This document shows, piece by piece, positions 7,177 to 23,783 of a DNA stretch of 64,000 bases (positions are counted from its first letter, which is position 1; each line of letters opens with the position of its first letter). A model generated the notes under the pieces. The model saw only the letters and a list, made by a program, of their open reading frames with translations, was not told where the DNA came from and did no database searches. The position numbers were made by a program, and so were the translations under genes. The stretch comes from Betaproteobacteria bacterium (GTDB lineage: Bacteria; Pseudomonadota; Gammaproteobacteria; Burkholderiales; JACQAP01). The stretch lies in the NCBI GenBank assembly GCA_016194905.1, contig JACQAP010000009.1, positions 77,569-141,568 of the forward strand, read 5' to 3'.

Positions 7177-7374
7177 CTACACCGGGAGCCGTACTTTCCC
7201 TTTCTTAGTTATCCGAACGGGTGCCTTGCCGCCGGCCACGATTGCCCACAGTTCCGCCGCGCTGGTAAACGGGCGGCGGACGCCGGATTCGACGACCTCC
7301 ACCACCCCGTTCACCCGCGTGCCTTTTTTTGCGGGACCGAGCACCCGAACGACGAAGCTTCGCAATTCGCGCAC
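7177..7374 (-). CDS. Small conserved protein, family S (paralog of 16270..16458)
   Basis: 65 aa (GTG start, uncertain). SFVVRV...GVVEVVESGVRRPFTSAAELWAIVAGG...KKGKV aligns with STFIVRL...GVVEDVRSGRRIPFASAEELWRAVSGG...AKGKV of the second copy. Confidence 0.7.
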   Translation of the reverse strand: MRELRSFVVRVLGPAKKGTRVNGVVEVVESGVRRPFTSAAELWAIVAGGKAPVRITKKGKVRLPV

Positions 7375-7405: not shown

Positions 7406-7888
7406 CTAACGCAATTTCCAGCTTCCCCATTCGCGAGTACACACCGCGATCTGACCCGCGGGCGGCGGCGCGTCGGTGACGGGCATCCAGTTGCTGGCGA
7501 CCGCGATGCCGTTGTACTTGCCGGTACCGCCGACAGCGCGAAAGCTACCGCTCTCCTGATTTTTGCGGTTGAACAGGCCGAATATCTTGTCGCCCGCCGG
7601 ATCCGTGTATTCGCAGGACCCCATCTCGTTGTACTCGCCGTTGACCAGAGTCCAGGTACCGTTGCATACGGATGTCGTGTTGTGAAAGAGCCCGCTTGCG
7701 ACGGGACTTACGCCATTGACGGTGTAGGACCCACCCATGGCATCTTTTGAATGCATGATCATGTGGTGCGCTCCCACGAAGCATTCGTTCTGATCGTACT
7801 TGCCTTCCTTCGCCAGATCGGCGCCGACGGCGCTTGCGCCGATGATGCAAAGCGATACTCCAATAAGCGATGCTAGTTTGCGGTTCAT
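7406..7888 (-). CDS. Secreted 4-Cys protein with GTGK[YF]xG motif, family D (paralog D1)
   Basis: ATG at 7888 is preceded by AGGAGAGGG. It has a signal peptide (LIGVSLCIIGASAVGA). ADLAKEGKYD..CF, C.G.W, G.CE.TDP.GDK.FG and GGTGKYNG are shared with 15764..16258. Confidence 0.8.
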   Translation of the reverse strand: MNRKLASLIGVSLCIIGASAVGADLAKEGKYDQNECFVGAHHMIMHSKDAMGGSYTVNGVSPVASGLFHNTTSVCNGTWTLVNGEYNEMGSCEYTDPAGDKIFGLFNRKNQESGSFRAVGGTGKYNGIAVASNWMPVTDAPPPAGQIAVCTREWGSWKLR

Positions 7889-8022
7889 GATTTCCCTCTC
7901 CTGTTTCATTGACGGTTGAACGATCGCAGCCGGGGCTTTCCTCCGGCGCCCATGGCGGAAACCGGGGGCTTTCCGAAATACCCTTCTGTTCTCGGCCGCT
8001 GGAGAGGTTGCGGCGATACAGG

Positions 8023-8059
8023 GTACGGATAAGTTACCGAATCGAGATCCGGTTACGGT
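8023..8059 (-). promoter_or_regulatory. Candidate SARP-type direct repeats between regulator R1 and its cargo
   Basis: GTACGGAT (8023), GTTACCGA (8033) and GTTACGGT (8052). The first two are 11 bp apart. They lie 22-58 bp after the R1 stop and about 135-165 bp upstream of the D1 start. Confidence 0.4.
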
Positions 8060-8080: not shown

Positions 8081-11000
8081 CTACACCTGCTGCACGGAGC
8101 GGAACAGGGCCTCGCTTTCGCGGGAGGGAGTAATGCCAAGCGTTACGGAGAGAATCTGGCGCAGGCGACGGTATACGGTCATGGCATCGGCATGGCGGCC
8201 GCGCTCGATGTGGCAGCGTATGAGGCCCTGGTAGAATTCCTCGGCCAGATCATCGGCGTCAATCCCGCGTTGGTACAACGAGGCCGCGGCGTCCAAGTCT
8301 CCCGCTCGTTCGAGCCTAACCCCTTCTCGTTCCGCATGACGGATGAACTTGCCACGCAGCCGCTCACGAGGGGACAACGCCCAGGACGACTCGCGCTCCT
8401 CGGGCAGAAACTGTCCTTGATAGAGCCTCTCGATCCGACTGGAGTCCACTCCCGCATCGGCGGCCTGCTCGAACGCGTTCGCGTCGATCCAGACCTCGTG
8501 GGGATTCACGCTGACCCGACCATTCTCCACCTGCACCGTATTCGGATTGCGGAGCAGCTTGCGCAAGCGATGCAGCGCAATCTTGCAGGCTTCCCGAGCA
8601 GCAGCACCTTCCTCGTCCGGCCAAAGCGCGTCCATGAGCTTCGTTTCCGGAACATCCACTCCTCCGAAGGCTATGATGGCCTTAAGGAGGGTAATCGGTT
8701 TTCTGGGTACCTTGTGAGAAAAGGACAGCACCTTGTCCTCCAAAAGAATCTTGAAGTGGCCAAGCGTGTAAATTCGGACCCGCCAAGGCCATTGGTCTGC
8801 TTGATTGGAGGGCGCCGGCAGCGAAAGGCGGCGTATCAGCACATTGACGTAGCCTGGCTCGAGCCCCAACTCCAGAGCCTCCGCACACAATCTTGGCGCC
8901 CACAATCTTATGAATCGCAAGGGCCAGTCACAGCCGGAGATGCGCTGCAACTCGAAGCCGCGCCGCAAATGTTCAGGCACAGATGTGCGATTGCCTTCTT
9001 CGAGTCCCAGGAATGCTTCGGAAAAATGAACCTCAGCCTTGAGCCAAAGCGAGCGTGACGTGTCAGCAAGATTCCTTGCCTCCGATATCCAGCGTCGCGC
9101 GTCGGCAAAGTCTCGCAGCACCGTCAAGCTCAATGCGAGCTGAATACGCGACACGCAACGCAGGAAATGCGTACCCGCCTCGTCGAAACTATTCACCGCG
9201 CGCTTGGCCGACACATATGCCCCCGCCGGGTCACCGTCGAACGCGGCAACCCACGCTTTGATCGATTCCGCGATGGCCTCGTTGTAAGGACGGCCTGACA
9301 TCTCCGTTTCATTGAGACGATTCGACCAGCGACGTGCGGCCTCTGCATTTCCCACACCGAACTCGACATGAGCGCCAACAATCGCCGCAAAGCGCGATAC
9401 TGCTGGCAGGCCGTCGTCCCGGCCGATGCGCTCGGCTTCCGAGACCGCCGCACGGCTTTTCTTTTCGTCGCCCGCCACCAGTTCGAAGAGGGAAATCATG
9501 AACCAACCCAAACCTGCACTCATTGGCGTGACTTCTGGATGTCCGAGGAGCTGCTCGAGCAAAGGCGCCGCTTTGCGTGCGATTTCGAGTGGTCCTGTGC
9601 GGGTGCCGTAGGCAACGAGGTACGCCGCCGCCAAGGTTCGCAGGTTGATGCTGCCGCCGATTTGTACCAGATCGAAGACTCGATCGGTGCAGGCATCCAG
9701 TGCGGGATCATCGGGTTTGCAGTACGACAACGCAATGAGGAGGGCAGAACGTGCGCGCAGTTCCGCTTCGGCATTCTCGAAGACCGTCACTTGTTCCAAT
9801 AGCACCTTCAGCGCCCCGATCCACTGATCCATCGCACGGAAATTGGTGTATTCGAATATGTAGGTCTGAATCACTCCCGCTGCGGCCTGGACTTGACACA
9901 TGAAGTCGGCCTGACGAGTCGCCGCTTCATGGCTCGCCTCCAGCGCTACCCTCGCCCCCCTAGCATCGACCGGCGTCTTCGCAGTGCCATACCAATGCAG
10001 CAACCAGCAATGGTTCTCGACCACTTCCTTCGGAAGAGCATCAATCCATTCCACGACGACCCGCCAGCGACCTTGCGCGATAAGTCTCGAGGCCTGGCGA
10101 AGAATGACCGCGATCGCGGCGGGTACATCGCCGCAGCGAAGGTAAAGCGGAAACGCCTCCTCGGAGTGGTCGTTCGCGTCGAGGATCTGCGCTGACCGTC
10201 GGGTAATGTCGGCATCCTGGTCTGGACTGAATGTCAGTTGTGCCCGATGCTGGAGGAATGCCTGAAAGAGTGCATGAAACTGATATACGCGCTGTTCGGT
10301 TGAACGCCGATCCGTGAACAGATGACGCCGGTGCAGATCTTCCAGTAGTAGCGAAGCCGTCGTGGTCCCGGTGAGATCCTCCGCCGTTCTTGCAGTCATT
10401 CCTGGCAGATAACTGAGGCGCAAAAGCTCGTCCTGACTTTGCGGGTGCATCTGATCGAAAAGCTGGCCGGCAAAATAGTTGAACACTTCGCGCAGAGAAT
10501 CAGACACGGTAGTACTTGGGAGATCGCCGCCGCGACGCCATCGCGCAAGCAGCAGAACGAGTCCGGCTGTCCAGCCCCCGCTTTTCTCATGAAGTTCGGC
10601 GATCTGAGAGTCGCTAAGCTGGATCCGCCCGGCACCGACAGCGCGTGCCTCCTCAAAGGTGAGCTTCAGATCCTCCCAATCGACAAACGCGACGTTCTCG
10701 TTGGCAATTAGCCGCGCGTAGCAGTCCGGCGGATCGCGCCGACTGACGGCGATCAGCATGATGCCCGGCGACACCTCTTCCACCGCTTGCGCGATCAGTT
10801 GGTGGAACTTCTGCTCCGGCCCAACTTCCTGATAGTTGTCCAGAACCACTGCCGCACCTTCCGGCAGCCGGCCAAACAATTCGCGGAAAAACCTGCGTGA
10901 GAACCCCTCGGCGTCCTGAAGATATTCGGGTGTGAGCAACGGCAGTGGCCGCTGCCCTTTGCGGCCAAAAGGTTTCGCCGCTTCCCCGAGGTAGTAGAAG

Positions 11001-11236
11001 AAGGTGGGGAGGTCTGCATCGCCGGGATCGACCTGGTACCAAATGCCCTTGATAACACGAGCATCGAGCCAACTGGCTACCAGCGTGGTCTTGCCTGCTC
11101 CTGGCGGGCCGACCACGCAGATCGCGGATTTATGCTCGCGGGCTTCGTTGAGCAGCACAAACAACCGCTCGCGCGCCACTGCCTTGTAAAGGCGCGGACG
11201 AGTCAGTTTGGCAAGCTGTGGTGGCTTCTTCGGCAT
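8081..11236 (-). CDS. MalT-type STAND P-loop ATPase with C-terminal SARP module (winged helix + BTAD), paralog R1
   Basis: 1051 aa. MalT-like N-terminus (LAKLTRPRLY...VVGPPGAGKTTL, Walker-B-like VVLDNYQEV) and a long helical middle. C-terminus is WPWRVRIYTLGHFKILLEDKVL...LWPDEEG...HRLRKLL (OmpR-type wHTH) plus DDLAEEFYQGLIRCH...YRRLRQILSVTLGITPSRESEALF (BTAD). Confidence 0.85.
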   Translation of the reverse strand: MPKKPPQLAKLTRPRLYKAVARERLFVLLNEAREHKSAICVVGPPGAGKTTLVASWLDARVIKGIWYQVDPGDADLPTFFYYLGEAAKPFGRKGQRPLPLLTPEYLQDAEGFSRRFFRELFGRLPEGAAVVLDNYQEVGPEQKFHQLIAQAVEEVSPGIMLIAVSRRDPPDCYARLIANENVAFVDWEDLKLTFEEARAVGAGRIQLSDSQIAELHEKSGGWTAGLVLLLARWRRGGDLPSTTVSDSLREVFNYFAGQLFDQMHPQSQDELLRLSYLPGMTARTAEDLTGTTTASLLLEDLHRRHLFTDRRSTEQRVYQFHALFQAFLQHRAQLTFSPDQDADITRRSAQILDANDHSEEAFPLYLRCGDVPAAIAVILRQASRLIAQGRWRVVVEWIDALPKEVVENHCWLLHWYGTAKTPVDARGARVALEASHEAATRQADFMCQVQAAAGVIQTYIFEYTNFRAMDQWIGALKVLLEQVTVFENAEAELRARSALLIALSYCKPDDPALDACTDRVFDLVQIGGSINLRTLAAAYLVAYGTRTGPLEIARKAAPLLEQLLGHPEVTPMSAGLGWFMISLFELVAGDEKKSRAAVSEAERIGRDDGLPAVSRFAAIVGAHVEFGVGNAEAARRWSNRLNETEMSGRPYNEAIAESIKAWVAAFDGDPAGAYVSAKRAVNSFDEAGTHFLRCVSRIQLALSLTVLRDFADARRWISEARNLADTSRSLWLKAEVHFSEAFLGLEEGNRTSVPEHLRRGFELQRISGCDWPLRFIRLWAPRLCAEALELGLEPGYVNVLIRRLSLPAPSNQADQWPWRVRIYTLGHFKILLEDKVLSFSHKVPRKPITLLKAIIAFGGVDVPETKLMDALWPDEEGAAAREACKIALHRLRKLLRNPNTVQVENGRVSVNPHEVWIDANAFEQAADAGVDSSRIERLYQGQFLPEERESSWALSPRERLRGKFIRHAEREGVRLERAGDLDAAASLYQRGIDADDLAEEFYQGLIRCHIERGRHADAMTVYRRLRQILSVTLGITPSRESEALFRSVQQV

Positions 11237-11309: not shown

Positions 11310-11549
11310 GTGGGTACAATGGTGCGAACAACCGAGGCAGAGTCCATGATCCGAAACGTTGAGCGATGGCAAAAGTGGGAAGCAGCGCAGATGCGGGGGG
11401 CCGTGGATTTTCCGCGTAACCAGCGAATGTTCGAGGCCCTGTACCGGCACGCCCGGCGGCTCAATCCCACAGCCCTGTTGCGGTTCCCCGAAGACCTGGA
11501 ATTCAAGATCCGCCTGGCCGGGGCGCTGAATGTTCGAGCGCCTGCTTGA
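11310..11549 (+). CDS. Small hypothetical protein, partner of the downstream nucleotidyltransferase
   Basis: 79-aa ORF whose 3' end overlaps the next gene start by 20 nt. It is divergent from R1. No motif recognised. Confidence 0.5.
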   Translation: MGTMVRTTEAESMIRNVERWQKWEAAQMRGAVDFPRNQRMFEALYRHARRLNPTALLRFPEDLEFKIRLAGALNVRAPA

Positions 11550-12078
11550 ACGTCTCGCCGGCAGTCTCGACCGGCACAAGATTCCCTATATGGTCATCGG
11601 CGGGCAGGCCGTCCTGGTTTACGGCGAGCCGCGCCTGACCAGGGACATTGACGTGACTGTTGGCGTGGATGCGAATCGGACCGACGCAATGCTGGTAGTG
11701 GCGCGAGAACTGGGGCTGAACGTCCGCGTCGAGCACCCCGCTGAATTCGTCCGGGATACGATGGTTCTTCCGTGCGAGGATGTGACTACGGGCATTCCGA
11801 TTGATTTTATTTTCTCGCGCTCGCCCTACGAGGTGGAAGCGCTGGCACGAGTGCGACGCGTGACTGTCGGAAGAGGTCAAGTCGCGTTTGCGAGCCTCGA
11901 AGACCTGATCATCCACAAACTCATTGCCGGCCGGCCGCGGGACATGGAAGACGTCCGGACCATCCTCCTGAAGAACCGGATATACGATCGAGCCTATGTG
12001 GCGAAATGGCTTGTCGAGTTCGACAAACTTCTGGATCGCCCTCTTGCACGGCAGCTAAAGGAACTCGACCCCGGTTGA
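11530..12078 (+). CDS. Minimal nucleotidyltransferase-fold protein (Pol-beta superfamily)
   Basis: 182 aa. IGGQAVLVYGEPRLTRDIDV fits the G[GS]-x(9-13)-D-x-D nucleotidyltransferase signature. Confidence 0.7.
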   Translation: MFERLLERLAGSLDRHKIPYMVIGGQAVLVYGEPRLTRDIDVTVGVDANRTDAMLVVARELGLNVRVEHPAEFVRDTMVLPCEDVTTGIPIDFIFSRSPYEVEALARVRRVTVGRGQVAFASLEDLIIHKLIAGRPRDMEDVRTILLKNRIYDRAYVAKWLVEFDKLLDRPLARQLKELDPG

Positions 12079-12264: not shown

Positions 12265-13503
12265 TTACGGCCGTTCCATCTTGCAGGTCGTGGGCAGGAT
12301 GTTGTCCTTCGCTTCTATGCGGACATCGGATTTCCACCCATATCCAGTATCGTCGGCGTCGTACTTCACATCAGCGGTGCCGGCTTTGACGAAACTCGAA
12401 ACATAGAGCGGCATGATCACCTGGTGATCATCGCCTCGCATCCACACCTCTCCCACGCCGCCGTCGTAGCGCAGGTCTTCCAGTGCCTTTGCGATTTGGA
12501 TCGGATCCGCGGAGCCGGCCTTGTCGATCGCGCGGGCGAGCATCTCGACGAAGTACTTGTAAGGCATGAATCCCCAGTCCTCCCTGAAGCGCTTCTTGTA
12601 GTCCAGGGAGTAGCGTTCCAGGGGGTGGCCTGCAATGTTCGCGTTCCAGGCTGCCACCGTCTTGACGCGGTTGGCGCCGGCAGCGCCAAAGGCGCGCGGT
12701 GTACCGACAAGAAAGCCGTAGTTGGTATAGAAGGTCGCTTTCAGCCCGGAGTCTTCGGCTGATTTGATCAGCAGCGCAAGGTCGCTGCCCCAGTTGCCGG
12801 TCAGCACCGTATCCGCTCCGCTCGATTTTATCTTGGCGACATAGGGCGCGAAATCCTTGACTTTGCCCAGCGGAATCAGCTCGTCTCCCACGATCTCGAT
12901 GTCGGGACGTTTCTTTGCGAGCATTTCCCTCGCCACCCGCTTGAAGGAATGTCCGTAGGCATAGTCGGGGTTGATCATGTAGAGCTTCTTCGCGGTCTTC
13001 TGCGTGGACAGGACGCCCGTCAAAGCGTCGATTTTCATGTCCAGGTTGGCCTCGAAGCGGAAGTGCCAGAAATTGCATTTCTCTTCGGTGAGCACGGTAT
13101 CGGTCGCGCCATTGTTCAGGTACAGGATCTCGCGCCCGGGATTGCGCTGGTTGTACTTGAGTACCGCGTCGGTCATGGCGTGCGCGACATGCGAACCGAC
13201 GCCCTGGGTAATCAGGCGGATGTTCTGATCGATCGCCTGCTTGAGGACCACCAGACTTTCCTGGGGGCTGGACTTGTTGTCGAGCAGCACCAGTTCCAGT
13301 TTGGTTCCACCCAGAACACCGCCGCGCGCGTTGATATCATCCACCGCCATCTGGATGTGACGGCTTCCCATCTCCCCCTGAAGCGCCGCCGGGCCGCTGA
13401 ACGGATCGATCACCGCTATCCTGATGTTCTCGGCGGCTGCCATCGACATGCCGCCTAACACCGAGGCCAGCACGAACGCTGCCCTGCAGAATATCCGGAT
13501 CAT
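12265..13503 (-). CDS. LivK/LivJ-type (branched-chain amino acid family) periplasmic substrate-binding protein, orphan copy 1
   Basis: ATG at 13503 is preceded by GAAGGG. It has a signal peptide and IRIAVIDPFSGPAALQGEMGSRHIQMAVDDINARGGVLGGTKLELVLLDNKSSPQES, typical of Peripla_BP_6 proteins. It is a paralog of the next gene. Confidence 0.85.
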   Translation of the reverse strand: MIRIFCRAAFVLASVLGGMSMAAAENIRIAVIDPFSGPAALQGEMGSRHIQMAVDDINARGGVLGGTKLELVLLDNKSSPQESLVVLKQAIDQNIRLITQGVGSHVAHAMTDAVLKYNQRNPGREILYLNNGATDTVLTEEKCNFWHFRFEANLDMKIDALTGVLSTQKTAKKLYMINPDYAYGHSFKRVAREMLAKKRPDIEIVGDELIPLGKVKDFAPYVAKIKSSGADTVLTGNWGSDLALLIKSAEDSGLKATFYTNYGFLVGTPRAFGAAGANRVKTVAAWNANIAGHPLERYSLDYKKRFREDWGFMPYKYFVEMLARAIDKAGSADPIQIAKALEDLRYDGGVGEVWMRGDDHQVIMPLYVSSFVKAGTADVKYDADDTGYGWKSDVRIEAKDNILPTTCKMERP

Positions 13504-13518
13504 GCTTGTCCCTTCACG

Positions 13519-13690
13519 CATTTATGGTCGAATACCCGTGCGAATACCCTGGCGAAGCCCGGAGTACCCTTTTAGCTAGGAGTTATGGTCGAAGACCGGT
13601 ATCCCCTGGGAATCCTTCGGAATCCCTTGGGAACCCTGTGGGCGCATTTCACACCTTTACCGTTCGCTGTTTACCGTTCACCATTCGCCG
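13519..13690. repeat. Intergenic element E4 (conserved core + word arm)
   Basis: 13519-13550 is identical to 12132-12163. GGAGTACCCTTTTAG is at 13561-13575. ttaccgttcgctgtttaccgttcaccattcgcc words are at 13655-13688. Confidence 0.85.
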
Positions 13691-13693: not shown

Positions 13694-14935
13694 TCACGGC
13701 CTTTCCATCTTGCATGTCGTCGGCAGAATATTGTCTTTCGCTTCTATGCGCGTATCGACGTGCCAGCCAAAGCCGGTTTCGTCCGCATCGTACTTCACGC
13801 CCTGCTTGCCGACCTTGGCGAAGGTCGCCACGAACAGCGGCTCCATGATCTGGTGATCATCCGCGCGCATCCACGCTTCGCCGACGCCGGCGTCGTAGCG
13901 CATGTCTTCCAGCGCCTTGGCGACCTTGACCGGATCGGCCGAGCCTGCCTTGTCGATCGCTTTCGTCCACATGTCGATCGTGTACTTGATCGGCAGGAAT
14001 CCCCAGTCTTCACCGTATTTCTTTCTGTACTCCAGATAATCCTTTTCCAGCGGATTGCCCGGCAGATTCGGATACCAGCTCGCGACGGTCTTCACGCGTT
14101 CGGCGCCCGCAGGACCGAAAGACTTCGGTGTGCCGACAAGGTAGGCGTAGTTGGTATAAAAATTCGCCGGCAGTCCGGCTTCCTCCGCGGACTTGATCAG
14201 AAGCGCAAGGTCGCTGCCCCAGTTACCCGACAGCACGGTATCGGCGCCGCTCGCCTTGATCTTGGCGATGTAAGGCGAGAAGTCCTTCACCTTGCCGGTC
14301 GGATGCAGTTCGTCGCCGACGATCTGGATGTCCGGCCGCTTCCTTGCGATCATTTCCTTGGCCACGCGGCTGACCGACTGGCCGTAGGCGTAATCCTGGT
14401 TGATCAGGTAGATCTTCCTGATGTTTCTGTCCTTCGCGATCACGCCGGTGAGGGCGTCGATCTTCATGTCCACGTTCGCGTCGAAGCGGAAATGCCAGTA
14501 ATTGCATTTCTCGTTGGTCAGCGCCGGATCGATCGCCGCGTGATTGAGGAAAAGAATCTCCTGACCGGGATTGCGCTGGTTGTACTTGAGCACGCCATCG
14601 GTCAGGGCATGGGCCACGTGCGAACCATTGCCCTGGGTGATGTAACGGATACCCTGGTCGGTAGCCTGCTTGAGGGCGATCAGACTTTCCTGCGGGCTGC
14701 TCTTGTTGTCCAGAGTGACTAACTCGAGTTTGATTCCCCCAAGTACGCCACCGCGCGAGTTGATCTCGTCGATCGCCGCCTGGATGTGCCGGTCGCCCTC
14801 CTTGCCTTGCAGCGCAAACGGCCCGCTTTGCGGGTCGATGTGGGCGATCTTGATGGTGTCGGCCGCTGCAGCGCAGCGAATTGCTGCAATGCCGAAAAGA
14901 AAAACTAGAGCCAGCCTGCCAGAAGCATGACACAT
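13694..14935 (-). CDS. LivK/LivJ-type periplasmic substrate-binding protein, orphan copy 2
   Basis: ATG at 14935 is preceded by GGGGGGAG. It has a signal peptide and is alignable end to end with copy 1; both end in DNILPTTCKMERP. Confidence 0.85.
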   Translation of the reverse strand: MCHASGRLALVFLFGIAAIRCAAAADTIKIAHIDPQSGPFALQGKEGDRHIQAAIDEINSRGGVLGGIKLELVTLDNKSSPQESLIALKQATDQGIRYITQGNGSHVAHALTDGVLKYNQRNPGQEILFLNHAAIDPALTNEKCNYWHFRFDANVDMKIDALTGVIAKDRNIRKIYLINQDYAYGQSVSRVAKEMIARKRPDIQIVGDELHPTGKVKDFSPYIAKIKASGADTVLSGNWGSDLALLIKSAEEAGLPANFYTNYAYLVGTPKSFGPAGAERVKTVASWYPNLPGNPLEKDYLEYRKKYGEDWGFLPIKYTIDMWTKAIDKAGSADPVKVAKALEDMRYDAGVGEAWMRADDHQIMEPLFVATFAKVGKQGVKYDADETGFGWHVDTRIEAKDNILPTTCKMERP

Positions 14936-15105
14936 GATCTCCCCCCGTCGATTTTTGTGTGTCCTCCAACTCGCGCCCAGTATATCCAGATGACGAGGCA
15001 GGCAAGAAGGTGGCGCATGGCACCCCGGTCCCCGATTGCCTCGCAATTCGTAATCCATCTGTAAGGAACCCGGTCATAGAGTAGCCAAGGTTGCACACCG
15101 CAATC

Positions 15106-15163: not shown

Positions 15164-15631
15164 ATGGGAACAAAGAAACTGTTGTCCTGCTCGGCCGCGG
15201 CACTCCTGATTGCCGGCACTGCCGGACAGACACTCGCAGCCGAATGCTCGGGCTATGACATTCTCGTCAACCAGGTTGCCGATACGCTCGACGTCGGCAA
15301 TGGGCACACGATGACCGTGATTCGTGCGTGGAGCATTCTCATCACCGACGATCCCAAGAGCGTTTACAACCTCGCCACCGGCGAGTGCCACGGAACGATC
15401 CTCGCGACACCGGACGGCAAGGGCCAGGCCTCCGGCTATTGCGCGCGTCGCGACAAGGATAAGGACACGCAAAGCATTCAGTGGACGCAGGCACCTGGCG
15501 CGGAAAAGGGCGAATGGCGCACAACCGGGGGCACTGGAAAATTTGCCGGGCGCACCGACTCAGGATGGTTTCAGGGTGTCAGTGCGGACGGAAAGATGTC
15601 GATTTCCAGATGGGGCGGCAAGTGTCGATAG
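15164..15631 (+). CDS. Secreted 4-Cys protein with GTGK[YF]xG motif, family D (divergent paralog D3)
   Basis: 155 aa; RBS GAGGAGAAG; signal peptide. Four Cys (AECSG, GECHG, GYCARRDKDKD, GKCR) and TTGGTGKFAG sit at positions equivalent to those in D1 and D2. Confidence 0.75.
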   Translation: MGTKKLLSCSAAALLIAGTAGQTLAAECSGYDILVNQVADTLDVGNGHTMTVIRAWSILITDDPKSVYNLATGECHGTILATPDGKGQASGYCARRDKDKDTQSIQWTQAPGAEKGEWRTTGGTGKFAGRTDSGWFQGVSADGKMSISRWGGKCR

Positions 15632-15666
15632 AGTTTGCCAGGTTTGGATACGAGGCCTGACCGCTG

Positions 15667-15690
15667 CCGCTGCGATACATCTCGCAGCGG
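15667..15690. terminator. Stem-loop between convergent D3 and D2 (possible bidirectional terminator)
   Basis: CCGCTGCGA-tacatc-TCGCAGCGG is a perfect 9-bp stem. The T-rich stretch (ttgtttcattattt) starts 10 nt downstream, so it is not a textbook intrinsic terminator. Confidence 0.45.
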
Positions 15691-15763
15691 CGACGGCGGG
15701 TTGTTTCATTATTTCCCTCCCTATGGATGAGTTTGCGCGTCTGGAACTTATTCCGGCACGCCG

Positions 15764-16258
15764 TTACTTCAACCGGTAGGTCCCGGTTGCACGATTGCAG
15801 TTCTGCAAGGTGCCTGGCCCCTGGGTCGCAAACTGACCGACCGCCGCATACGAGCCGCCACCGGTCATGCCGGAATACTTGCCGGTACCGTTCATGACCT
15901 GCCACTTCCCGCCGCTACCCGTGTTCGCATACTTGCCGAACTGCTTGTCGCCGTCGGGGTCGGTCGTCTCGCAATAGCCGTTCTCCTGATAAACGCCGTC
16001 GATCACCGCCCACACCCCGGAACAGCGGATTCCGTTCAGGTGATAAAGCCCACCGTTGGGCAGATTGCTGACCATGGGTCCGTAAAGATCCAGAACCCCG
16101 GCGATCAGCTTGTCCGAATGGGCTATGGCAGGCAAAGGCCCGCCGAAGCAAAGATTGACGTCGTACTTGCCTTCCTTGGGCAAATCGGCATAAACAGGCG
16201 AAGCGCTGATTGCGATCAAGGCGAATGCGACAACGAAAGCGGATTTTCTGCCAAGCAT
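15764..16258 (-). CDS. Secreted 4-Cys protein with GTGK[YF]xG motif, family D (paralog D2)
   Basis: ATG at 16258 is preceded by AAGGAGGAG. It has a signal peptide (FVVAFALIAISASPVYA). ADLPKEGKYD.N.CF, IRCSGVW, GYCETTDPDGDKQFG and NGTGKYSG are present. Confidence 0.8.
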   Translation of the reverse strand: MLGRKSAFVVAFALIAISASPVYADLPKEGKYDVNLCFGGPLPAIAHSDKLIAGVLDLYGPMVSNLPNGGLYHLNGIRCSGVWAVIDGVYQENGYCETTDPDGDKQFGKYANTGSGGKWQVMNGTGKYSGMTGGGSYAAVGQFATQGPGTLQNCNRATGTYRLK

Positions 16259-16269: not shown

Positions 16270-16458
16270 TTATTCTGATTTTGATGGTGAGACTTTCCCT
16301 TTGGCGTTCCGGGGAAAACCTCCTGACACTGCACGCCACAACTCCTCGGCACTCGCAAAAGGTATGCGACGGCCGGACCTGACGTCTTCGACCACGCCGG
16401 CGAGCGGCCGCCGCGCCTGACGATAAAGGCGAACGATGAATGTAGATCCCGGATCCAT
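16270..16458 (-). CDS. Small conserved protein, family S (paralog of 7177..7374)
   Basis: 62 aa from the ATG at 16458, which is preceded by GGGGAGGG (the track start at 16476 is TTG). Alignment is given under 7177..7374. Confidence 0.7.
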   Translation of the reverse strand: MDPGSTFIVRLYRQARRPLAGVVEDVRSGRRIPFASAEELWRAVSGGFPRNAKGKVSPSKSE

Positions 16459-16498
16459 GGTCCCTCCCCGGCGCAAAGTCAGGCTAGCCCGGCAGGGA

Positions 16499-16531: not shown

Positions 16532-19500
16532 TCAGTTGCCCTGAATGGACTTGAACAGCCGCTCGCTTTGCGGGGAAGGTTGAATGCCGAGCGTGACGGA
16601 AAGGGTCTGACGCAGACGTCGGTATACCGCCATGGCCTCTGCGCGGCGGTCCTGCTGCATGTGGCAACGCATCAGGCCCTGGTAGAGCTCCTCGGCAAGG
16701 TCGTCGGAATCGATGCCCTTCTGGTAGAGCAGCACCGCAACCTCAAGTCGGCCTTCGCTCTCGTACTGTCGGCCGGTTCGCGATACATAGTGCAGGAACT
16801 GGCTGCGCAAGCGCTCGCGCATCGGGACGGCCCATGACGCATCGGTGTCTTCGCACAGAAAGTGGCCACGATAGAGCCGCCAGACGGGATCGATCATGTC
16901 CGGCACCTGCACAGCGTCAAGCGCGCGCTCGCGGCCGGAGATCATTCGTTCAAATGCCCGGGTGTCGACCCAGCATTTGCGCGGATCCAGCGATATCAGG
17001 CCTTCGGACAACTGCAGTACGTCGGCATGATCGAGCAGCTTGCGCAGCCGATGCAGGCTCACCGCAAGCGTTTCGTGAGCCGCATCTCCGCTCTCGTCGG
17101 GCCACAGCGCATCGATCAGCTTTTGTTCAGGCACGGCAGTGGCGCCGAAAGCTACAATTGCCTTGAGCAGAGCAAGCGTTTTCTTGGGCGCCTTGCGCGA
17201 AAACACCAACGGCTCGCCGTCGACTTCGATCCGGAATTCGCCGAGCGTATGAATTTTGACCGGCCAAGGCCAGTCCGGTACGTCGGACTCGCGCGGAGGC
17301 ACCTCGAATTTTCGAATGTATTCCCGTATGTAGGGCACCTCGATACCCGCCTGTAAAGCTTCCGCGACCATCCAGTCGAACATTGGGACGCAACCGCGCG
17401 CATAAGGCCAGGCATTGAACTCCTTTCCCATCACGATCGATTCGGCCAGTTGTTGACGTGCGCGAACGCGGTCGCCACGCAGGTTCGAGATGAATGCACG
17501 GCACTGCAGGATTGACGGTCGATAGCGCTCCATGAAGGTGCCCTCCGAAGCAATCCATGCCTCATCCAGCCATTTTTCGGCAAGCTCGATTTCGCCGACC
17601 ATAGCCGGTGCCGGTGCGCATTGAGCCCGCCACGCGACGTAGAAGAAAGGTGCGCCCAGTTTGGTCGCCGACTCCACGGCAACTTTTGCGTGATACGCGG
17701 CCCCAGAGGCATCTCCCGTGCTGATGGCTATGAAACACCTCGCGAGGTGGAATTGCGCCATGTTCATGGGCTGCCCCTGGCTGAAAGTGCCCTCCAGTCC
17801 GGCCACTGAAGCTTTTGCCGCCGAGAATTCCCGCCATGCGACCGCGTAATAAGTGCGGAAACAATGTGAAAAGAACTCCGTCTGCCTCAGTCCGTTCGCA
17901 GACGCAATCCGGTCAGAGTGCTCCAATGCCTGCACTGTCAGATCGCGATCTCCGGCCCGGTGATACTGATATCCGACAAACATCCACCACCACGCCTTGT
18001 TCAGCGGGGTAACCTCGGGACGTTCGACGAGTGGGCCGATGCGTACCACGATTGCGCGCGCCCGTGATGGCTCCATTGCAAGGGTGTGGTAAATCATGAG
18101 ACCGGTTGCCGCCGCGACAATCTGGTTCCGGTCGCCGTCCCCTTGCAAGAGCTCGGTGAGCCGAGTGACGACGCTGCCCATCAGGGGGTGCCCAGTGTGG
18201 CGATAGGTAAACGCAATCATCAACGCACCCAGCACGTGGATCTCATCTGCGGCGCTGGCAAAGGCCGGTCTTTCGGCAAGAATGGACCCGATCTCTTCCA
18301 CCCACCGGTCGAGGGGTTGGAAATTTGTGTACTCGAGGTAGTAGGTGCGGATAATCCAAGCCGCGGACACAAGTTGGCCGACACCGTCCGCGTTCGTCCT
18401 GAAGGCTTCAAAGGCTCGTTCAAACAGTCCTCGCGCATCGGGCACTCCTTCATAAACGCGGGCGCTGCCGGCCCAGTACAGCAACCAGGGGTTAAGCTGC
18501 ACCAGATCGTTCGGCAGATCGCGTATCCAGTCGCGCAACGTCTGCCATCGCCCTTGTGCGAGCAACTGGGGCGCAAGCGAATGAACCACGCCCGCTGCAT
18601 CCAGCCAAAGTTTCGCGTCTCTTAGTAGTGGAAAGGCTGCTTCCAGCGCGCCTTTATCGCGCATCATCAAGCCGGCGCACGCGAGCAGTTCGCGAATCTC
18701 TGTTTCCGAGATCGAGTCCTGCAATCGCCTGCCAAGAAAGTCCCGGAATAGATCGTGATATTGATACCGCTGTTCATTCGCGCCGCGCTTGTAAGTAAAT
18801 AGGTGCCGCCTGCACAACGAGTCGAGCAGCACTTCCGCATGGGTGTTGCCGCTGAGCGCTACGGCGGCATCGACCGAAAATGAGGAGAAGACCGAAGTCC
18901 TGAGGAGAGTGTTTTTGTCGCTCACCGATGCCGCGTCGAAGATTTGAGTCGCAAAGTAATCGAATGTGGCATCTTTCGCGAGGCTATCGATCTCGGCATC
19001 GCCGGCAAGCCGCCCGCGAAAGCGCTCCACGGTGAGCGTCAATCCCGCCGCCCATCCGTCGGACTTCTCATACAGCTTTTCCAGTACGCGAGGGTCGATG
19101 TCCCCCCGGGCCTTTGCGATCGCATGCGCCTCGTCGGGAGTAAGCCTCAGATCCTCCCATCCAATTTGAGCGACGGCCTCGCTGGCGACATGTCGCGAAA
19201 ACTCCGGCGGCGGTTCGGTGCGACTGATGCAGACAAGGTTGACATGCTCCGGCACTTCCGGGACCGCAGCGCTCAGTACCCGCGGGATCGCCCCTTGTTG
19301 TGGAACATCCTGAAAGTTATCGAAGACGAAAAAACTGTTCTCCGGCGCGCGCGCGAAGAGATCCCGGAAGTAGCGTCTGGCAAAGCCTTCGAGGTCGGGT
19401 AGGTACTCGGCAGTCAGCAGGGGGAGGGGCTGCGACTTGCGGGCGAACGACTGGGCCGATTCGGTGAGGTAATAAAAGAACGTCGACACGTCGGCATCTC

Positions 19501-19711
19501 CAAGGTCGACGTGATACCAGACGCCCGCCCGTTCGCGGGATTCCAGATAGCTCGCGATGAGCACGGTCTTGCCGGCACCGGGCGGTCCGGCAACCCAGAT
19601 CGCAGGATGCTTGCGCTTCTCGTCGAGCAGCCTGAACAGCCGCTCGCGCGGCACCGCGTCATAAAGACGCGGGCGCGAAAGCTTGGCCAGTTGCTGCGGC
19701 TTCTTCGACAC
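16532..19711 (-). CDS. MalT-type STAND P-loop ATPase with C-terminal SARP module, paralog R2
   Basis: 1059 aa. LAKLSRPRLY...VAGPPGAGKTVL, FVFDNFQDV, C-terminal WPWPVKIHTLGEFRIEVDGEPLVF...LWPDESGD...HRLRKLL and DDLAEELYQGLMRCH...YRRLRQTLSVTLGIQPSPQSERLF. Confidence 0.85.
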   Translation of the reverse strand: MSKKPQQLAKLSRPRLYDAVPRERLFRLLDEKRKHPAIWVAGPPGAGKTVLIASYLESRERAGVWYHVDLGDADVSTFFYYLTESAQSFARKSQPLPLLTAEYLPDLEGFARRYFRDLFARAPENSFFVFDNFQDVPQQGAIPRVLSAAVPEVPEHVNLVCISRTEPPPEFSRHVASEAVAQIGWEDLRLTPDEAHAIAKARGDIDPRVLEKLYEKSDGWAAGLTLTVERFRGRLAGDAEIDSLAKDATFDYFATQIFDAASVSDKNTLLRTSVFSSFSVDAAVALSGNTHAEVLLDSLCRRHLFTYKRGANEQRYQYHDLFRDFLGRRLQDSISETEIRELLACAGLMMRDKGALEAAFPLLRDAKLWLDAAGVVHSLAPQLLAQGRWQTLRDWIRDLPNDLVQLNPWLLYWAGSARVYEGVPDARGLFERAFEAFRTNADGVGQLVSAAWIIRTYYLEYTNFQPLDRWVEEIGSILAERPAFASAADEIHVLGALMIAFTYRHTGHPLMGSVVTRLTELLQGDGDRNQIVAAATGLMIYHTLAMEPSRARAIVVRIGPLVERPEVTPLNKAWWWMFVGYQYHRAGDRDLTVQALEHSDRIASANGLRQTEFFSHCFRTYYAVAWREFSAAKASVAGLEGTFSQGQPMNMAQFHLARCFIAISTGDASGAAYHAKVAVESATKLGAPFFYVAWRAQCAPAPAMVGEIELAEKWLDEAWIASEGTFMERYRPSILQCRAFISNLRGDRVRARQQLAESIVMGKEFNAWPYARGCVPMFDWMVAEALQAGIEVPYIREYIRKFEVPPRESDVPDWPWPVKIHTLGEFRIEVDGEPLVFSRKAPKKTLALLKAIVAFGATAVPEQKLIDALWPDESGDAAHETLAVSLHRLRKLLDHADVLQLSEGLISLDPRKCWVDTRAFERMISGRERALDAVQVPDMIDPVWRLYRGHFLCEDTDASWAVPMRERLRSQFLHYVSRTGRQYESEGRLEVAVLLYQKGIDSDDLAEELYQGLMRCHMQQDRRAEAMAVYRRLRQTLSVTLGIQPSPQSERLFKSIQGN

Positions 19712-20250: not shown

Positions 20251-20345
20251 CGGCGCAATTTTTCCTGCCTCGTCAAGCACGCCGCCGAAGTGATGTGAGA
20301 AAGGCCTCGCCGCGGCTGTTGCTGGGCTTTACTCGGGAGAGAGTC

Positions 20346-20591: not shown

Positions 20592-23500
20592 TCAGCGGCT
20601 GGAAAGTTTCCGGAACAGCTCCTCGGTCGCCGGAGATGGCTGGACGCCGTGGACCCGGGTAAGCAGTTCGCGCATCCGGCGATAGGCTTCGAGCGCCTCC
20701 GGCGTGCGACCCACCTGATGGTGGCAGCGCATCAGGCCCTGATGGAAGGTCTCCGCGAGTTCGTCAGCCTCAATGCCCCGAATGTATAGATCGAGCGCCT
20801 CTTCGTGGCGCCCCTCCTGCTCGAACCGGCGAGCGGCCGAACTGACTAGTTCGAGATAACGCGCGCGCAATTTGTCCCGGGTGGAGAAAGCCCAATGCGC
20901 GTCGTCATCGTCGGGGAGGAAGGATCCGCGGTAGAGTTTAATTGCCCGCATCGTCTGGGCGTGTATCGGTCCGGGTGCGCGCGTGCCTGCGCTTTCCGAT
21001 TCGAACGCCAATGAATCGACCCATACGCGACCCGGATCGAGAGAGATGCGGCCTTCACGTTCCGTGATGAGATCATTCTTCCCGAGCAATCTGCGAAGCC
21101 GATGCAATGCGGTGGTAAAGGATTGGTGCGCGGTGTCGCCGTCCTCGTCCGGCCAGAGGGCATCGGCAAGTTTCCGCTCGGTAACTTCCTTGCCGCCGAA
21201 AGATATGATGGCCTTGAGCAACGAAAGCAGTTTTTTCGGCGTCTTGGCGGCAAACACCAGCGGCTCTCCATCGAGTTCGACGGAAAATTGTCCGAGGCTG
21301 CGGATTTTCACCGGCCACGGCCAGACCTCCAGATACGGCTCAGGCGCCTCAAGGCCGAATTCTCGGATGAAGGCAAGCGCTCTTTGAACATGAATCCCGC
21401 GTTCCATGGCAGCGGCCGCCAGCATCGCGGCCCATCCCCAGCACCAGGCCAGCATGTGCCCATACTGGTCCATGCCGTGGCGTTCGTGCGCGAAAATCCT
21501 GTTCAATCTGTCGTCCAGCACCGGCAAATCGCCTTGCCTCAGTGCCATGATTGCCTCGGCCGCATCGGGCGCAAAACGTGCCCATTCCATGTTTACGCGA
21601 TCGGACGAGCGGCGATGCTCTTCGATCCATCTCCGGCCCGCGACATGATCACCCGACTCGACGGTTCCCCAGATCAGGCCGGTCAGCGCCATGAAAATAT
21701 GAGGAATCGATCCGGCTTCGACATACAGTTCGTAGGCCCGCGCGCCATGGCTCAGCGGCGACGCTGGGTCACCCGTGTACACGCCAAACCAGGACTTCAT
21801 GTTCACCAGGGACGCAACCTCATAGGGTTGCGCAGGGATCATGATCTCTTCGAAGCGCTCGATGCGGCGTCGGCCCGACTCGATGCGTCGCTGGTCCATG
21901 TCGAAGTAGAAACCGAGGATGCACGCGAAGCGCTCCGCAATATGCATCCCTTCATCGCTGGCGATCGACAGGTTTCTTGCCACGGCCTGCTCACCGAGCG
22001 AAACATCGCTGGCGTTGCAGGCATACCAGTTGATGACTGCCCAGGCGAAGATCCTCCGGAAGACGGTGACGGCAGGATCTGCGAGCAACGGCGTAAGCAG
22101 CACAGCGGCTCGTCGGCTAACCTGCAGATGTCCGGTAAAGCTTCCATACAAGGTAAGATAAGTCGCCGCCGTTACGCGAAGATTGACGTCCGCGCCGGTC
22201 CGAAGCAATTCATCGACTCGAACCACGCACTGGTCAATCCGCTTGTGGTCCGGCATCCGGTAAACAAGCGCGATCAGCATGGCCGATTGCGCGCGCAACT
22301 CCGCATTCGGCTCCATCGAGCGCATTTGCGGCTCGAACATCCTTTCCAGAACGGGAATCCAACGATCCAACGGTGTGAACACCGCGTACTCGAGAAAATA
22401 GGCTTCGACCATGCCGGCCGCCGTCTGTACCTGGCACAGCAGATCATCTTCTCTGATCGACTGTTGGCAGGCTCGTTCCAGAATTGAGCGGGCACGCGGC
22501 GGATCAACCCCGATCCACGCGGTGCCCAGCCAGTGCAGCAGCCAGCAGTTCTTCGCCACCAGTTCCTCGGGCAGTTCGCCGACCCAATCCACGACCATTC
22601 TCCAGCGCCCTTGCGAGATAAAGCGCATGGCCTCGTGCAGCACAAGCGCCTGCGCCCCAGCCCAGTCCCGCGCTTCGACATGAAGCGCCATGGCGGCTTC
22701 AACCTCTCCCACCTGCTCCAGTTGTTGTGCCGCCAGGCGGGCAATTGCGCCTTGCTGAGACGGACTCAGCTCCTGGCGCGCACGATGCCTCAGGAAGGCA
22801 CGGAACAGCGCGTGGAACTGATAGACCGGTTCTGCGCTCCGGCGCCGGTCAGTGAACAAATGACGGCGATAGAGTTGTTCAAGCAACCGGGCCGCAGAGA
22901 CATTTCCGGTCAGCGCTTCAGCCATGGATTCCGGAATGTTGGGCGGGTAACTCAACAGCAGGAGCATGCGGCGGGTTTCCGCGTCAGCGCGGTCGAACAA
23001 CTGCCCGGCGAAATAGCCGAACACTTCCTGCAGGGAATCCGGCGCGGACAGATCTTCGATGCTTGCGCCGCGCTGCAGACGCTCCGCCAGCAGGATCAGA
23101 CCTGCCGCCCAGCCGCCGGAGCGCTCATGCAATTCATCGAGCAGCCGATCATCCATTGGCGCATGTTGATGCACGATCTGCCTTGTTTCCTCGCGCGTGA
23201 GTTTCAACGGTTCCCATTCGATCAGTGCCAACGTCCGGTTCGCGCTCAGGAGGGCGAATTCTCCGTCGGGCACGACTCGGCTCACGATGACAACCGGGAT
23301 GCCGTGCGGGGCATTCTCGATCGCAATCCGGACGACTTCATGGAAGACGGCTTCGCTGCCTGCCTCTTGGAAATTGTCCAGCACCAGAACCGCCGGCGCT
23401 GACAGACGACTGAACAGCTCCCGGAAGTAACGCCGGGCAAAACCGGGAACATCGGCCAGGTGTTCGGGAGTCAGCAGGGGCAGCGGCCGCAGCTTGCGCG

Positions 23501-23783
23501 GCCGGCCGGACCGGGCACGCTCCGCGATGCCGAGGTAATAGAAGAAGCTCGCCGGGTCGGCATCCCCGGCATCGACCTGATACCAGATGCCGGACTTGCC
23601 GCGGCTTTTCAGCCAGCCCGCCACCAATGTGGTTTTGCCTGCGCCGGGGGGTGCCGCGATCCACAGGGCAGGATGCTCGCTCGCCTCGTCGAGAAGGCTG
23701 AACAAACGCTCTCTTGGCAGCGCGTCATAGAGCCGCGGCCGGCTCAGTTTTGCAAGCTGGGCTTTGCGCGAACCTACCGCCAT
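20592..23783 (-). CDS. MalT-type STAND P-loop ATPase with C-terminal SARP module, paralog R3
   Basis: 1063 aa. LAKLSRPRLY...IAAPPGAGKTTL, LVLDNFQEA, C-terminal WPWPVKIRSLGQFSVELDGEPLVF...LWPDEDGD...HRLRRLL and DELAETFHQGLMRCH...YRRMRELLTRVHGVQPSPATEELF. Confidence 0.85.
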   Translation of the reverse strand: MAVGSRKAQLAKLSRPRLYDALPRERLFSLLDEASEHPALWIAAPPGAGKTTLVAGWLKSRGKSGIWYQVDAGDADPASFFYYLGIAERARSGRPRKLRPLPLLTPEHLADVPGFARRYFRELFSRLSAPAVLVLDNFQEAGSEAVFHEVVRIAIENAPHGIPVVIVSRVVPDGEFALLSANRTLALIEWEPLKLTREETRQIVHQHAPMDDRLLDELHERSGGWAAGLILLAERLQRGASIEDLSAPDSLQEVFGYFAGQLFDRADAETRRMLLLLSYPPNIPESMAEALTGNVSAARLLEQLYRRHLFTDRRRSAEPVYQFHALFRAFLRHRARQELSPSQQGAIARLAAQQLEQVGEVEAAMALHVEARDWAGAQALVLHEAMRFISQGRWRMVVDWVGELPEELVAKNCWLLHWLGTAWIGVDPPRARSILERACQQSIREDDLLCQVQTAAGMVEAYFLEYAVFTPLDRWIPVLERMFEPQMRSMEPNAELRAQSAMLIALVYRMPDHKRIDQCVVRVDELLRTGADVNLRVTAATYLTLYGSFTGHLQVSRRAAVLLTPLLADPAVTVFRRIFAWAVINWYACNASDVSLGEQAVARNLSIASDEGMHIAERFACILGFYFDMDQRRIESGRRRIERFEEIMIPAQPYEVASLVNMKSWFGVYTGDPASPLSHGARAYELYVEAGSIPHIFMALTGLIWGTVESGDHVAGRRWIEEHRRSSDRVNMEWARFAPDAAEAIMALRQGDLPVLDDRLNRIFAHERHGMDQYGHMLAWCWGWAAMLAAAAMERGIHVQRALAFIREFGLEAPEPYLEVWPWPVKIRSLGQFSVELDGEPLVFAAKTPKKLLSLLKAIISFGGKEVTERKLADALWPDEDGDTAHQSFTTALHRLRRLLGKNDLITEREGRISLDPGRVWVDSLAFESESAGTRAPGPIHAQTMRAIKLYRGSFLPDDDDAHWAFSTRDKLRARYLELVSSAARRFEQEGRHEEALDLYIRGIEADELAETFHQGLMRCHHQVGRTPEALEAYRRMRELLTRVHGVQPSPATEELFRKLSSR

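Follow-up and report, generated by a model that had tools for sequence, protein, structure and literature searches.

Paralogous four-cysteine proteins with a predicted dirigent-type barrel fold and SARP-like candidate promoters beside STAND-BTAD regulators in a betaproteobacterial genome

The DNA analyzed here, a stretch of 64,000 nucleotides from contig JACQAP010000009.1 of a soil Betaproteobacteria bacterium (hereafter, the window), contains an island in which three small proteins with predicted signal peptides, D1, D2, and D3, are encoded next to three large STAND-BTAD regulators, R1, R2, and R3 (Table 1). The best overall explanation of the data, to which we give a probability of about 0.6, is that the D proteins are exported, disulfide-stapled barrels of the allene oxide cyclase (AOC)/dirigent type, and that their genes are controlled by the STAND-BTAD activators. 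We place good confidence in the predicted fold, in the family, and in the promoter architecture, and little in the biochemistry. The data show paralogy, the size of the family, the predicted fold, the joint behavior of cysteine pairs, the features of the signal peptides, a conserved layout of the promoters, and the gene order; export, disulfide bonds, the binding of the R proteins to repeats in the DNA, and all biochemical roles are what we infer.

D1, D2, and D3 are real paralogs. BLASTP aligned D1 with D2 over the full length (E 1e-31, 37% identity) and D2 with D3 over 89 amino acids (aa; E 1e-10, 30% identity), and gave a weak alignment of D1 with D3 (E 4e-4). Against a family profile of 123 members, from which the window proteins had been left out to avoid circularity, D2 scored 192 bits, D1 160, and D3 64, and the best score among 200 shuffled versions of mature D3 was 6.6 bits, compared with the 64 bits of D3 itself. 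An initial annotation of the window had placed three paralogs at the positions listed in Table 1, with a significant computed alignment as the check, and both the alignments and the independent profile scores bear it out. Each of the three open reading frames (ORFs) starts with an ATG behind a strong Shine-Dalgarno sequence and runs to a stop codon; the Shine-Dalgarno contexts are GGAGAGGG, which precedes the D1 ATG at 7888, AAGGAGGAG, and GAGGAGAAG. A search of the window by tblastn and a motif scan revealed no fourth copy.

The motif [GN]GTGK[YF].G near the C-terminus and the stretch ADL.KEGKYD.N.CF common to D1 and D2 are present as the initial annotation described them. Some of its other details need correction. 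The loop that it gave as G.C....D.[DG][GK]D exists in all three proteins, with three rather than four residues between Cys and Asp and with Ala in D1 at the [DG] position, so that it reads G.C...D.[AD][GK]D. Signal peptides occur on all three proteins, and the mature length of about 135-140 aa stated for them fits D1 and D2 and exceeds that of D3 (Table 1). Likewise, each protein has its four cysteines, whereas in D3 only the middle two sit in the family columns. Only D1 has a His/Met-rich loop, GAHHMIMHSKDAM (residues ~38-51; GGPLPAIAHSDKL in D2), which is similar to Met/His motifs of the Cu(I) type but is not conserved in the family.

The bacterial family of the D proteins is large, with at least about 1000 clusters, and has neither name nor annotation. 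A word-indexed search with D2 as sole query found 15 proteins; the same kind of search with a 126-member profile found 1056 clusters at 90% identity, 100% of them hypothetical or unnamed and with zero Pfam domains. An exhaustive profile search collected 1890 clusters (50% identity) at E<=1e-3, of which 748 were found at E<=1e-10. The nearer relatives in reference genomes are from Betaproteobacteria, namely metagenome-assembled genomes (MAGs) of Burkholderiales and Casimicrobiaceae, Ramlibacter albus, and Rubrivivax; one member of the family comes from an Acidobacteriota MAG, and the D2 protein of the window is also encoded, in identical gene order, on two short metagenome contigs. Member length is almost uniformly 155-175 aa, and in two longer members the D domain is fused to extracytoplasmic PEGA domains.

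The initial statement that no sequence family can be assigned holds. None of D1-D3 matched Pfam at E<=10 or any NCBIfam model, a Pfam scan of the 126 family members gave nothing significant, and sequence searches of the PDB with the 3-sequence and 126-sequence profiles returned only noise. Two specific assignments were tried and rejected: membership in PF03018 (Dirigent), given the missing Pfam match at E<=10 and an hhalign probability of 4%, and membership in DUF3237 (PF11578), given the missing Pfam match and an hhalign probability of 0.4%.

Export of the D proteins is suggested by their N-termini. The cleavage sites placed by inspection are ASAVGA|DL in D1, SPVYA|DL in D2, and QTLA|AE in D3. 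In a heuristic scan of the 126 members, 124 begin with a basic N-terminus that leads into a stretch of 10 or more uncharged residues, and 120 have an AxA-like cleavage site; the same scan picked up a lipobox-like motif in 7 members and a twin-arginine-like motif in 4. With n- and h-regions and AxA-like sites recognized in this way, the signal peptides claimed for all three proteins stand, and the D proteins would be Sec-exported to the periplasm as polypeptides of ~14-15 kDa.

The four cysteines (C1-C4) likely form two disulfides, since they are lost pairwise across the family and the strand registers of the D2 model agree with such a pairing. All four are present in 121 of the 139 full-length members; C2 and C3 alone are retained in 6 members and C1 and C4 alone in 4, and the 7 members that lack C4 alone are mostly apparent C-terminal truncations. 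According to DSSP on the AlphaFold2 model of D2, C79 faces C96 in the hairpin 75-86/89-99 (86+89 = 79+96), and C37 faces C154 between strands 29-41 and 150-162, which close the barrel (29+162 = 37+154). The predicted bonds in D2 are thus C37-C154, between strands 1 and 8 at the closure of the barrel, and C79-C96, between strands 3 and 4. In D3, both outer cysteines are displaced outward by ~7-8 residues, with the cross-strand register kept within one residue, and the outer pair of its ortholog in the related locus L001 is shifted likewise. D1 and D3 each have one additional cysteine within the signal peptide. The pairwise loss and the agreement of the registers are an indirect, computed form of the disulfide check that the initial annotation had proposed, and its outcome is positive.

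The AlphaFold2 model of D2, built on a 16-sequence alignment, has a mean predicted local distance difference test score of 86 and a predicted template-modelling score of 0.75. Of its nine strand segments, eight are long, and these form an eight-stranded antiparallel barrel after the signal peptide. In a Foldseek comparison of this model with the PDB, the 12 best matches are all dirigent proteins, with E values from 1e-4 to 2e-3 and a probability of 1.0, led by GePTS1 (6ooc; E 1.2e-4), PsPTS1 (6ood), PsPTS2 (8th2), DRR206 (4rev), and the dirigent domain of JAC1 (7r5z). They are followed by the Diels-Alderases PloI4, PyrI4, and Cyc15, by Tsn15, PhnH, and PodA, and by two DUF3237 structures; an uncharacterized Shewanella protein (2q03) is matched with a template-modelling (TM) score of 0.72, normalized to the target. 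The AOC-barrel fold class, which comprises allene oxide cyclase, dirigent proteins, DUF3237, DUF3224, PodA, and the spirotetronate cyclases, accounts for at least 28 of the best 40 matches, including all those just named. The model therefore supports an AOC/dirigent-type barrel for the D proteins at the level of fold only. The resemblance to dirigent and AOC barrels guessed in the initial annotation from the GTGK[YF] signature is borne out by the predicted fold and finds no counterpart at the sequence level.

The link between the D genes and the regulators comes from their candidate promoters. Comparison by eye of orthologous intergenic regions brought out a repeat, and upstream of the small S genes that accompany D (in the window and in the related loci L001, L004, L024, and L026) it has the conserved form wTCyGTAAnnnATCyGTAA, that is, two repeats 11 bp apart, followed after 12 nt by TAGCCT, TAGGCT, TAGTCT, or TACGCT. 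The pattern TCNGTAVNNMATCYGTAA, built from loci outside the window alone and allowing up to 2 mismatches, has four matches in the window compared with 0.23 expected, and none of 100 shuffles reached four. All four sites lie between genes, in the orientation of the gene or unit that follows (D1, D3, the S2-D2 unit, and a gene for a 128-aa protein). Taken singly, the unit CCGTAAYCC shows no clear enrichment (30 occurrences in the window vs. 20 expected); only the tandem form is enriched. A consensus scan found no sigma-70 consensus promoter at the repeat sites. Across the loci, the spacing between the repeat and a following TA[GC]nnT is 12 nt in eight of nine promoters, D1 being the exception. 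The repeat and the hexamer also precede S in L007 and L024-L026, and the 118-aa gene that corresponds to the 128-aa gene in L022, L024, and L025 is preceded by a repeat box with TAGCCT or TAGCGT.

This arrangement resembles that of SARP-type activators, whose sites have been described as heptamers that are directly repeated with an 11-bp period and overlap the -35 region (PMC10972967). The common layout of the repeat and the -10-like hexamer supports a tie between the D genes and R1-R3: since a tandem repeat with such a hexamer precedes all three D genes (S2-D2 being taken as one unit), they are supported as the output of the adjacent regulators, as initially proposed, with the restriction that the link is seen in the close lineage only. 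The putative regulon may extend to S and to the 128-aa gene. R1-R3 share 39-43% identity with each other, and all consist of an AAA_16/MalT-type NTPase and a BTAD domain. In Pfam, Trans_reg_C scores below threshold in R2 and R3; the precomputed domains of R2 are WHD_MalT and BTAD.

Comparison with related genomes places the D-R linkage in context. In L001, L004, L007, and L022-L026 the flanks of the island are common and the interior varies. The unit that recurs in L004 and L024-L026 consists of R, S, D, a secreted DUF3237 protein, and Peripla_BP_6; in these relatives S ends 1-11 nt upstream of D, and the gene directly downstream of D encodes a DUF3237 protein with a signal peptide. The small exported proteins of the L001 and L007 islands include a secreted DUF3237 and an additional D member (L001 11267-11779, with GGTGKYAGIQG), and proteins outside the D family that have the motifs GGTGKFSSIRG or GGTGPFMGIKG. 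The island looks like a hot-spot of diversified exported barrel proteins, several of which are located behind S genes and repeat boxes.

Distant D homologs were sampled at 13 genome loci and on 7 metagenome contigs, with 6-10 kb around D. One of these loci, L011, has a large STAND-type protein ~6 kb from D, which matches R in the NTPase region only. When the neighbors of distant homologs were clustered all against all, nothing recurred except, now and then, a solute-binding protein, an alpha/beta hydrolase, or a mobile-element gene; transposases, integrases, or recombinases are frequently encoded beside D. Exported D genes tend to adjoin periplasmic binding or STAND-type signaling proteins of unrelated families, for example in L009, L029, and L032 (Table 1). 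The D-R linkage is real and limited to one lineage, and D behaves as an accessory gene. An obligate partnership of D and R was rejected, as none of the sampled distant homologs has a BTAD-type R within 6-10 kb. The comparison of the distributions of D and the STAND regulators, which the initial annotation had put forward, thus came out in two ways: they co-occur in the close lineage, and no BTAD-type R was found within 6-10 kb of D at the distant loci and contigs sampled.

Several results weigh against the explanation given at the outset. The Foldseek TM scores against the dirigent proteins are only ~0.45-0.5. At the sequence level, the Dirigent model PF03018 is hit by 2 of 126 members at a sub-threshold E of 0.08, and DUF3224 gives sub-threshold Pfam echoes in 4 members (best E 0.006). 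The hhalign comparison of the D family with dirigent segments covers 11 columns, in which W..xGTGKY is aligned with E..IVGGTGAF and nothing beyond the motif; that with the neighboring DUF3237 proteins yields the still lower probability given above. No tie to any characterized family was found by sequence in Pfam, NCBIfam, or the PDB. On the regulatory side, the -10-like hexamer of D1, CAACCT, is poor, and the conservation of the repeat is partly due to shared ancestry, some of the sites being orthologous. Finally, at the distant loci and contigs no BTAD-type R, S, or Peripla_BP_6 gene was found within 6-10 kb of D, and the neighborhoods are heterogeneous, often contain mobile-element genes, and show no consistent pathway; a single pathway for the whole family is disfavored because of this heterogeneity.

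By analogy with the fold class, the cavity of the D barrel would bind a hydrophobic or aromatic small molecule. Binding or conversion of such a molecule is proposed because the characterized members of the fold (dirigent proteins and pterocarpan synthases, allene oxide cyclase, PhnH, PodA, the spirotetronate cyclases, and the DUF3237 decarboxylases PhcF, PhcG, and PinX) hold hydrophobic or aromatic small molecules in the barrel and mostly convert them without a cofactor. The D proteins might carry this molecule or, probably, convert it cofactor-free in the periplasm, and the ligand or product would probably be handed to the neighboring periplasmic solute-binding proteins. The C-terminal SARP-like module of R1-R3 would bind the tandem 11-bp repeat that stands in for the -35 element, and upon a related signal the regulators would activate D1, D3, S2-D2, and the 128-aa gene. 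The initial annotation had remarked that the D proteins have no enzyme-like motif; this is no argument against catalysis, since the members of the fold class are largely cofactor-free enzymes.

More specific roles can be weighed against this general one. The D proteins could be periplasmic cofactor-free enzymes acting on phenolic dimers from plants or lignin, or on similar aromatics, in concert with secreted DUF3237 proteins, the epoxide hydrolase, and alpha/beta hydrolases, while the Peripla_BP_6 proteins take the products for uptake. This would agree with the top fold matches, the dirigent proteins and pterocarpan synthases, which handle the quinone-methide chemistry of monolignols and isoflavonoids, and with the secreted DUF3237 gene located directly downstream of D in the relatives. 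The DUF3237 proteins PhcF, PhcG, and PinX are decarboxylases that act in phenylcoumaran or pinoresinol catabolism (PMC9942872, PMC12607616), and an EHN-type epoxide hydrolase borders the island in L001 and L025 as it does here. However, no D of the window has a DUF3237 gene beside it, nor is there one among the window genes scanned against Pfam; in the annotated part of the island no genes for aromatic ring cleavage or transporter permeases were identified, the solved structure closest to the binding proteins is that of a generic Liv-type protein, and the distant D homologs are found outside aromatic-catabolic clusters. With fold analogy and one neighbor family as its basis, such a catabolic role appears rather unlikely.

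The presence of PodA, which demethylates pyocyanin, and of several natural-product barrels among the fold matches brings to mind a defensive role, in which D would neutralize or sequester a toxic exogenous molecule in the periplasm, for instance a redox-active or antibiotic metabolite made by competitors, and the STAND regulators would sense the toxin. The accessory character of D would suit this role, its island being variable inside and bounded by conserved TauE and 3HCDH genes at one end and the epoxide hydrolase gene at the other, as would the transposase, integrase, and recombinase genes that often adjoin distant D genes; a set of diverged paralogs with one regulator apiece would be compatible with diversification against varied ligands. 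Nevertheless, there is zero sequence similarity to PodA, its fold match is weaker than that of the dirigent proteins (E 0.05 vs. 1e-4), and efflux or resistance genes are not consistently adjacent, and we consider the defensive role improbable. The D proteins may also do no chemistry at all and be passive carriers, structural proteins of the envelope, or shuttles that bring a ligand to the adjacent solute-binding proteins or sensors, or bind Ca2+ or another metal through the D-x-[AD]-G-D-K hairpin. Dirigent proteins proper are often described as scaffolds without catalysis, two unrelated families of binding proteins flank D in separate lineages (Peripla_BP_6 here, ABC_sub_bind in L009 and L029, with a dCache kinase in L009), fusions to PEGA surface domains exist, and the invariant turn D100, G103, D104, K105 resembles acidic metal-binding loops. 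Yet the middle acidic residue of the loop varies (Ala in D1, Asn in the family member P0015), and the near-invariant polar residues, K127 and [YFW]128 among others, could equally mark an active site (R156 is conserved as well); a non-catalytic role thus seems quite unlikely. The explanation preferred here remains that of exported AOC/dirigent-type barrels under STAND-BTAD control, with the nature of the ligand left general.

The order of the island, read along the minus strand, is R3, the 128-aa ORF with an HExxH motif, R2, S2, D2, D3 (opposite strand, convergent), the binding proteins BP2 and BP1, the DUF6036 pair, R1, D1, and S1. One flank is formed by a CoA-binding protein, identified through synteny with L001, an aminopeptidase, an alpha/beta hydrolase, a 3-hydroxyacyl-CoA dehydrogenase, and TauE; the EHN-type (microsomal-like) epoxide hydrolase of the other flank also borders the island in L001, L022, and L025. 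A Peripla_BP_6 neighbor is shared by L001, L004, L024, and L026; the nearest solved structure to BP1 is 4xfk, a Liv-type binding protein without a stated ligand. In L022, L024, and L025, the counterpart of the 128-aa ORF likewise has an R gene on either side.

The S proteins, of ~61-68 aa and without a signal peptide, share the core F[IV]VR[LI]YR...G[VL][VI]E.V.SG.R..F.S..ELW followed by a basic disordered tail. S2 has 11 homologs, all unnamed. Many codon differences between the S genes are synonymous only, which argues that S is a real coding sequence. The AlphaFold2 model has a beta-beta-beta-alpha core (mean local confidence score, pLDDT, 74); a fold search of the PDB gave no significant match (best E 0.5), and a Pfam search none. 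S could act on R or D, either as a partner or through feedback.

The 138-nt spacer between the convergent D3 and D2 genes folds at -54.9 kcal/mol (z = -2.95), and its GC-rich hairpin is probably a two-way terminator; a simple terminator scan, in which terminator-like sites were no more frequent than by chance, did not report it. The DUF6036/AbiEii-like nucleotidyltransferase and the 79-aa ORF overlapping it upstream may be a toxin-antitoxin-like module, and L004 holds a comparable pair beside a regulator, DUF6036 with a 177-aa gene.

Table 1. Features of the island and of related loci; coordinates are those of the window unless another locus is named
Feature	Coordinates	Strand	Description
D1	7406..7888	-	ORF; 160-aa precursor, ~137 aa mature; 4-Cys barrel family
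D2	15764..16258	-	ORF; 164-aa precursor, ~140 aa mature; member used for modelling
D3	15164..15631	+	ORF; 155-aa precursor, ~130 aa mature; divergent paralog, outer Cys pair shifted
R1	8081..11236	-	1051 aa; N-terminal AAA_16 (STAND-type) NTPase, C-terminal BTAD (Pfam); 40-43% identical to R2 and R3
R2	16532..19711	-	1059 aa; AAA_16, C-terminal Trans_reg_C (20.7 bits vs. cut-off 26.2), BTAD (Pfam)
R3	20592..23783	-	1063 aa; paralog of R1 and R2
S1	7177..7374	-	65-aa paralog of S2 (tblastn E 2e-7); 31 nt downstream of D1
S2	16270..16458	-	62 aa, predicted cytoplasmic; heads S2-D2 unit; ends 11 nt before D2
Repeat TCCGTAACCCATCCGTAA	16499..16516	-	16 nt past R2 stop, 41 nt before S2; TAGCCT at 16481-16486
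Repeat TCGGTAACTTATCCGTAC	8023..8040	-	Between R1 and D1; weaker CAACCT at 8005-8010
Repeat TTCGTAATCCATCTGTAA	15047..15064	+	Upstream of D3; TAGAGT at 15077-15082
Degenerate repeat TTAGTTAGCCATCTGTAA	20450..20467	-	After R3, before 128-aa ORF; TAGCGT at 20432-20437
BP1	12265..13521	-	Periplasmic solute-binding protein, Peripla_BP_6 (Pfam E 4e-68)
BP2	13694..14935	-	Second Peripla_BP_6; divergent from D3; ORF reaches 15058, likely start ATG at 14935
128-aa ORF	19894-20280	-	Between R3 and R2; HELEHH (HExxH-like) motif; no Pfam match
GC-rich hairpin	15654..15702	.	Between convergent D3 and D2; 11-bp perfect core stem
DUF6036/AbiEii-like nucleotidyltransferase	11530-12078	+	182 aa; between R1 and BP1
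79-aa ORF	11310-11549	+	Overlaps upstream of DUF6036 gene; no Pfam match
EHN-type epoxide hydrolase	24056-25237	-	Nearest solved structures 5f4z (E 2e-92), 4i19 (E 2e-81)
D3-type ortholog	L001 10096-10554		Outer Cys pair shifted as in D3
S genes in relatives	L001 7793-7999; L001 9794-9985; L007 4815-5015
Small exported proteins in islands of relatives	L001 8506-9048, 10647-11138, 11267-11779, 11894-12448; L007 4299-4784, 9104-9880
Distant D locus	L009 4699-9138		D between two ABC_sub_bind (PF04392) proteins; dCache-HAMP histidine kinase downstream
Distant D locus	L029 4849-8612		D flanked by ABC_sub_bind proteins; GerE protein nearby
Distant D locus	L032 12-5034		D downstream of guanylate-cyclase/AAA_16/TPR pair; amidase and hydrolases nearby

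The fold class and its bacterial representatives are already known. New are the unannotated family of at least ~1000 clusters with its predicted periplasmic address and two conserved disulfides (the latter a prediction as well), the triplication of D beside paralogous STAND-BTAD regulators, and a defined candidate operator. If the proposed explanation is true, a large unannotated family joins the dirigent/AOC fold class in the bacterial periplasm. The chemistry of the characterized members of this class is unusual and cofactor-free and comprises stereocontrolled coupling, cyclization, decarboxylation, and demethylation, and its periplasmic branch would then be a plausible source of new enzymes for the conversion of lignan, lignin, or xenobiotics. 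To our knowledge, the targets of large STAND-BTAD regulators in Proteobacteria are largely undescribed, and the regulatory model put forward here is concrete and testable: it specifies an operator, the promoters at which it occurs (four), and R1-R3 as candidate activators. A far-reaching version, according to which the D proteins would be a widespread family of periplasmic, disulfide-stapled, cofactor-free dirigent-like enzymes for phenolics from plants or lignin or for metabolites of competitors, switched on in this lineage by ligand-sensing STAND regulators as a Gram-negative counterpart of the Streptomyces SARPs with reversed architecture, together with a new small cytoplasmic partner, S, is doubtful.

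Among known systems, the closest in fold are the plant dirigent proteins and pterocarpan synthases, which are of similar size and, as predicted for the D proteins, secreted and built as an eight-stranded antiparallel barrel. The dirigent motif GGTG.F..[AH]RG and the D motif [GN]GTGK[YF].G are both glycine-rich and located near the C-terminus. The D family differs in being bacterial, in its two conserved putative disulfides, and in having no significant sequence similarity to the dirigent proteins (TM ~0.5). The DUF3237 proteins (the decarboxylases PhcF, PhcG, and PinX and the hydroalkoxylase PhnH; PDB 9m2y, 9m2z, 6jjt) are of the same fold class and, unlike D, lack the four cysteines and GTGK[YF]; those that have been characterized are enzymes that convert aromatic substrates without a cofactor. 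PloI4 (7x7z), PyrI4 (5btu), Cyc15 (8of7), Tsn15 (6noi), PodA (5k21), and 2q03 match the fold with target-normalized TM scores of 0.5-0.72. The natural-product barrels and PodA are small bacterial proteins that bind hydrophobic molecules and catalyze without a cofactor; they have no sequence similarity to the D proteins, which are predicted to be exported and are encoded outside biosynthetic clusters, whereas the natural-product barrels other than PodA are, we assume, cytoplasmic tailoring enzymes encoded within such clusters.

The regulators are closest to the SARP activators (AfsR, ActII-ORF4, DnrI, and PimR), with which R1-R3 share the BTAD domain and a promoter layout where repeats with an 11-bp period replace the -35 element and are followed by a -10-like hexamer. 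In large SARPs of the AfsR type the SARP module is N-terminal. The domain order of R1-R3 is reversed compared with AfsR, the NTPase being N-terminal and the putative DNA-binding module C-terminal. R1-R3 further differ from the SARPs in their betaproteobacterial host and in their putative targets, which are small exported proteins rather than antibiotic clusters.

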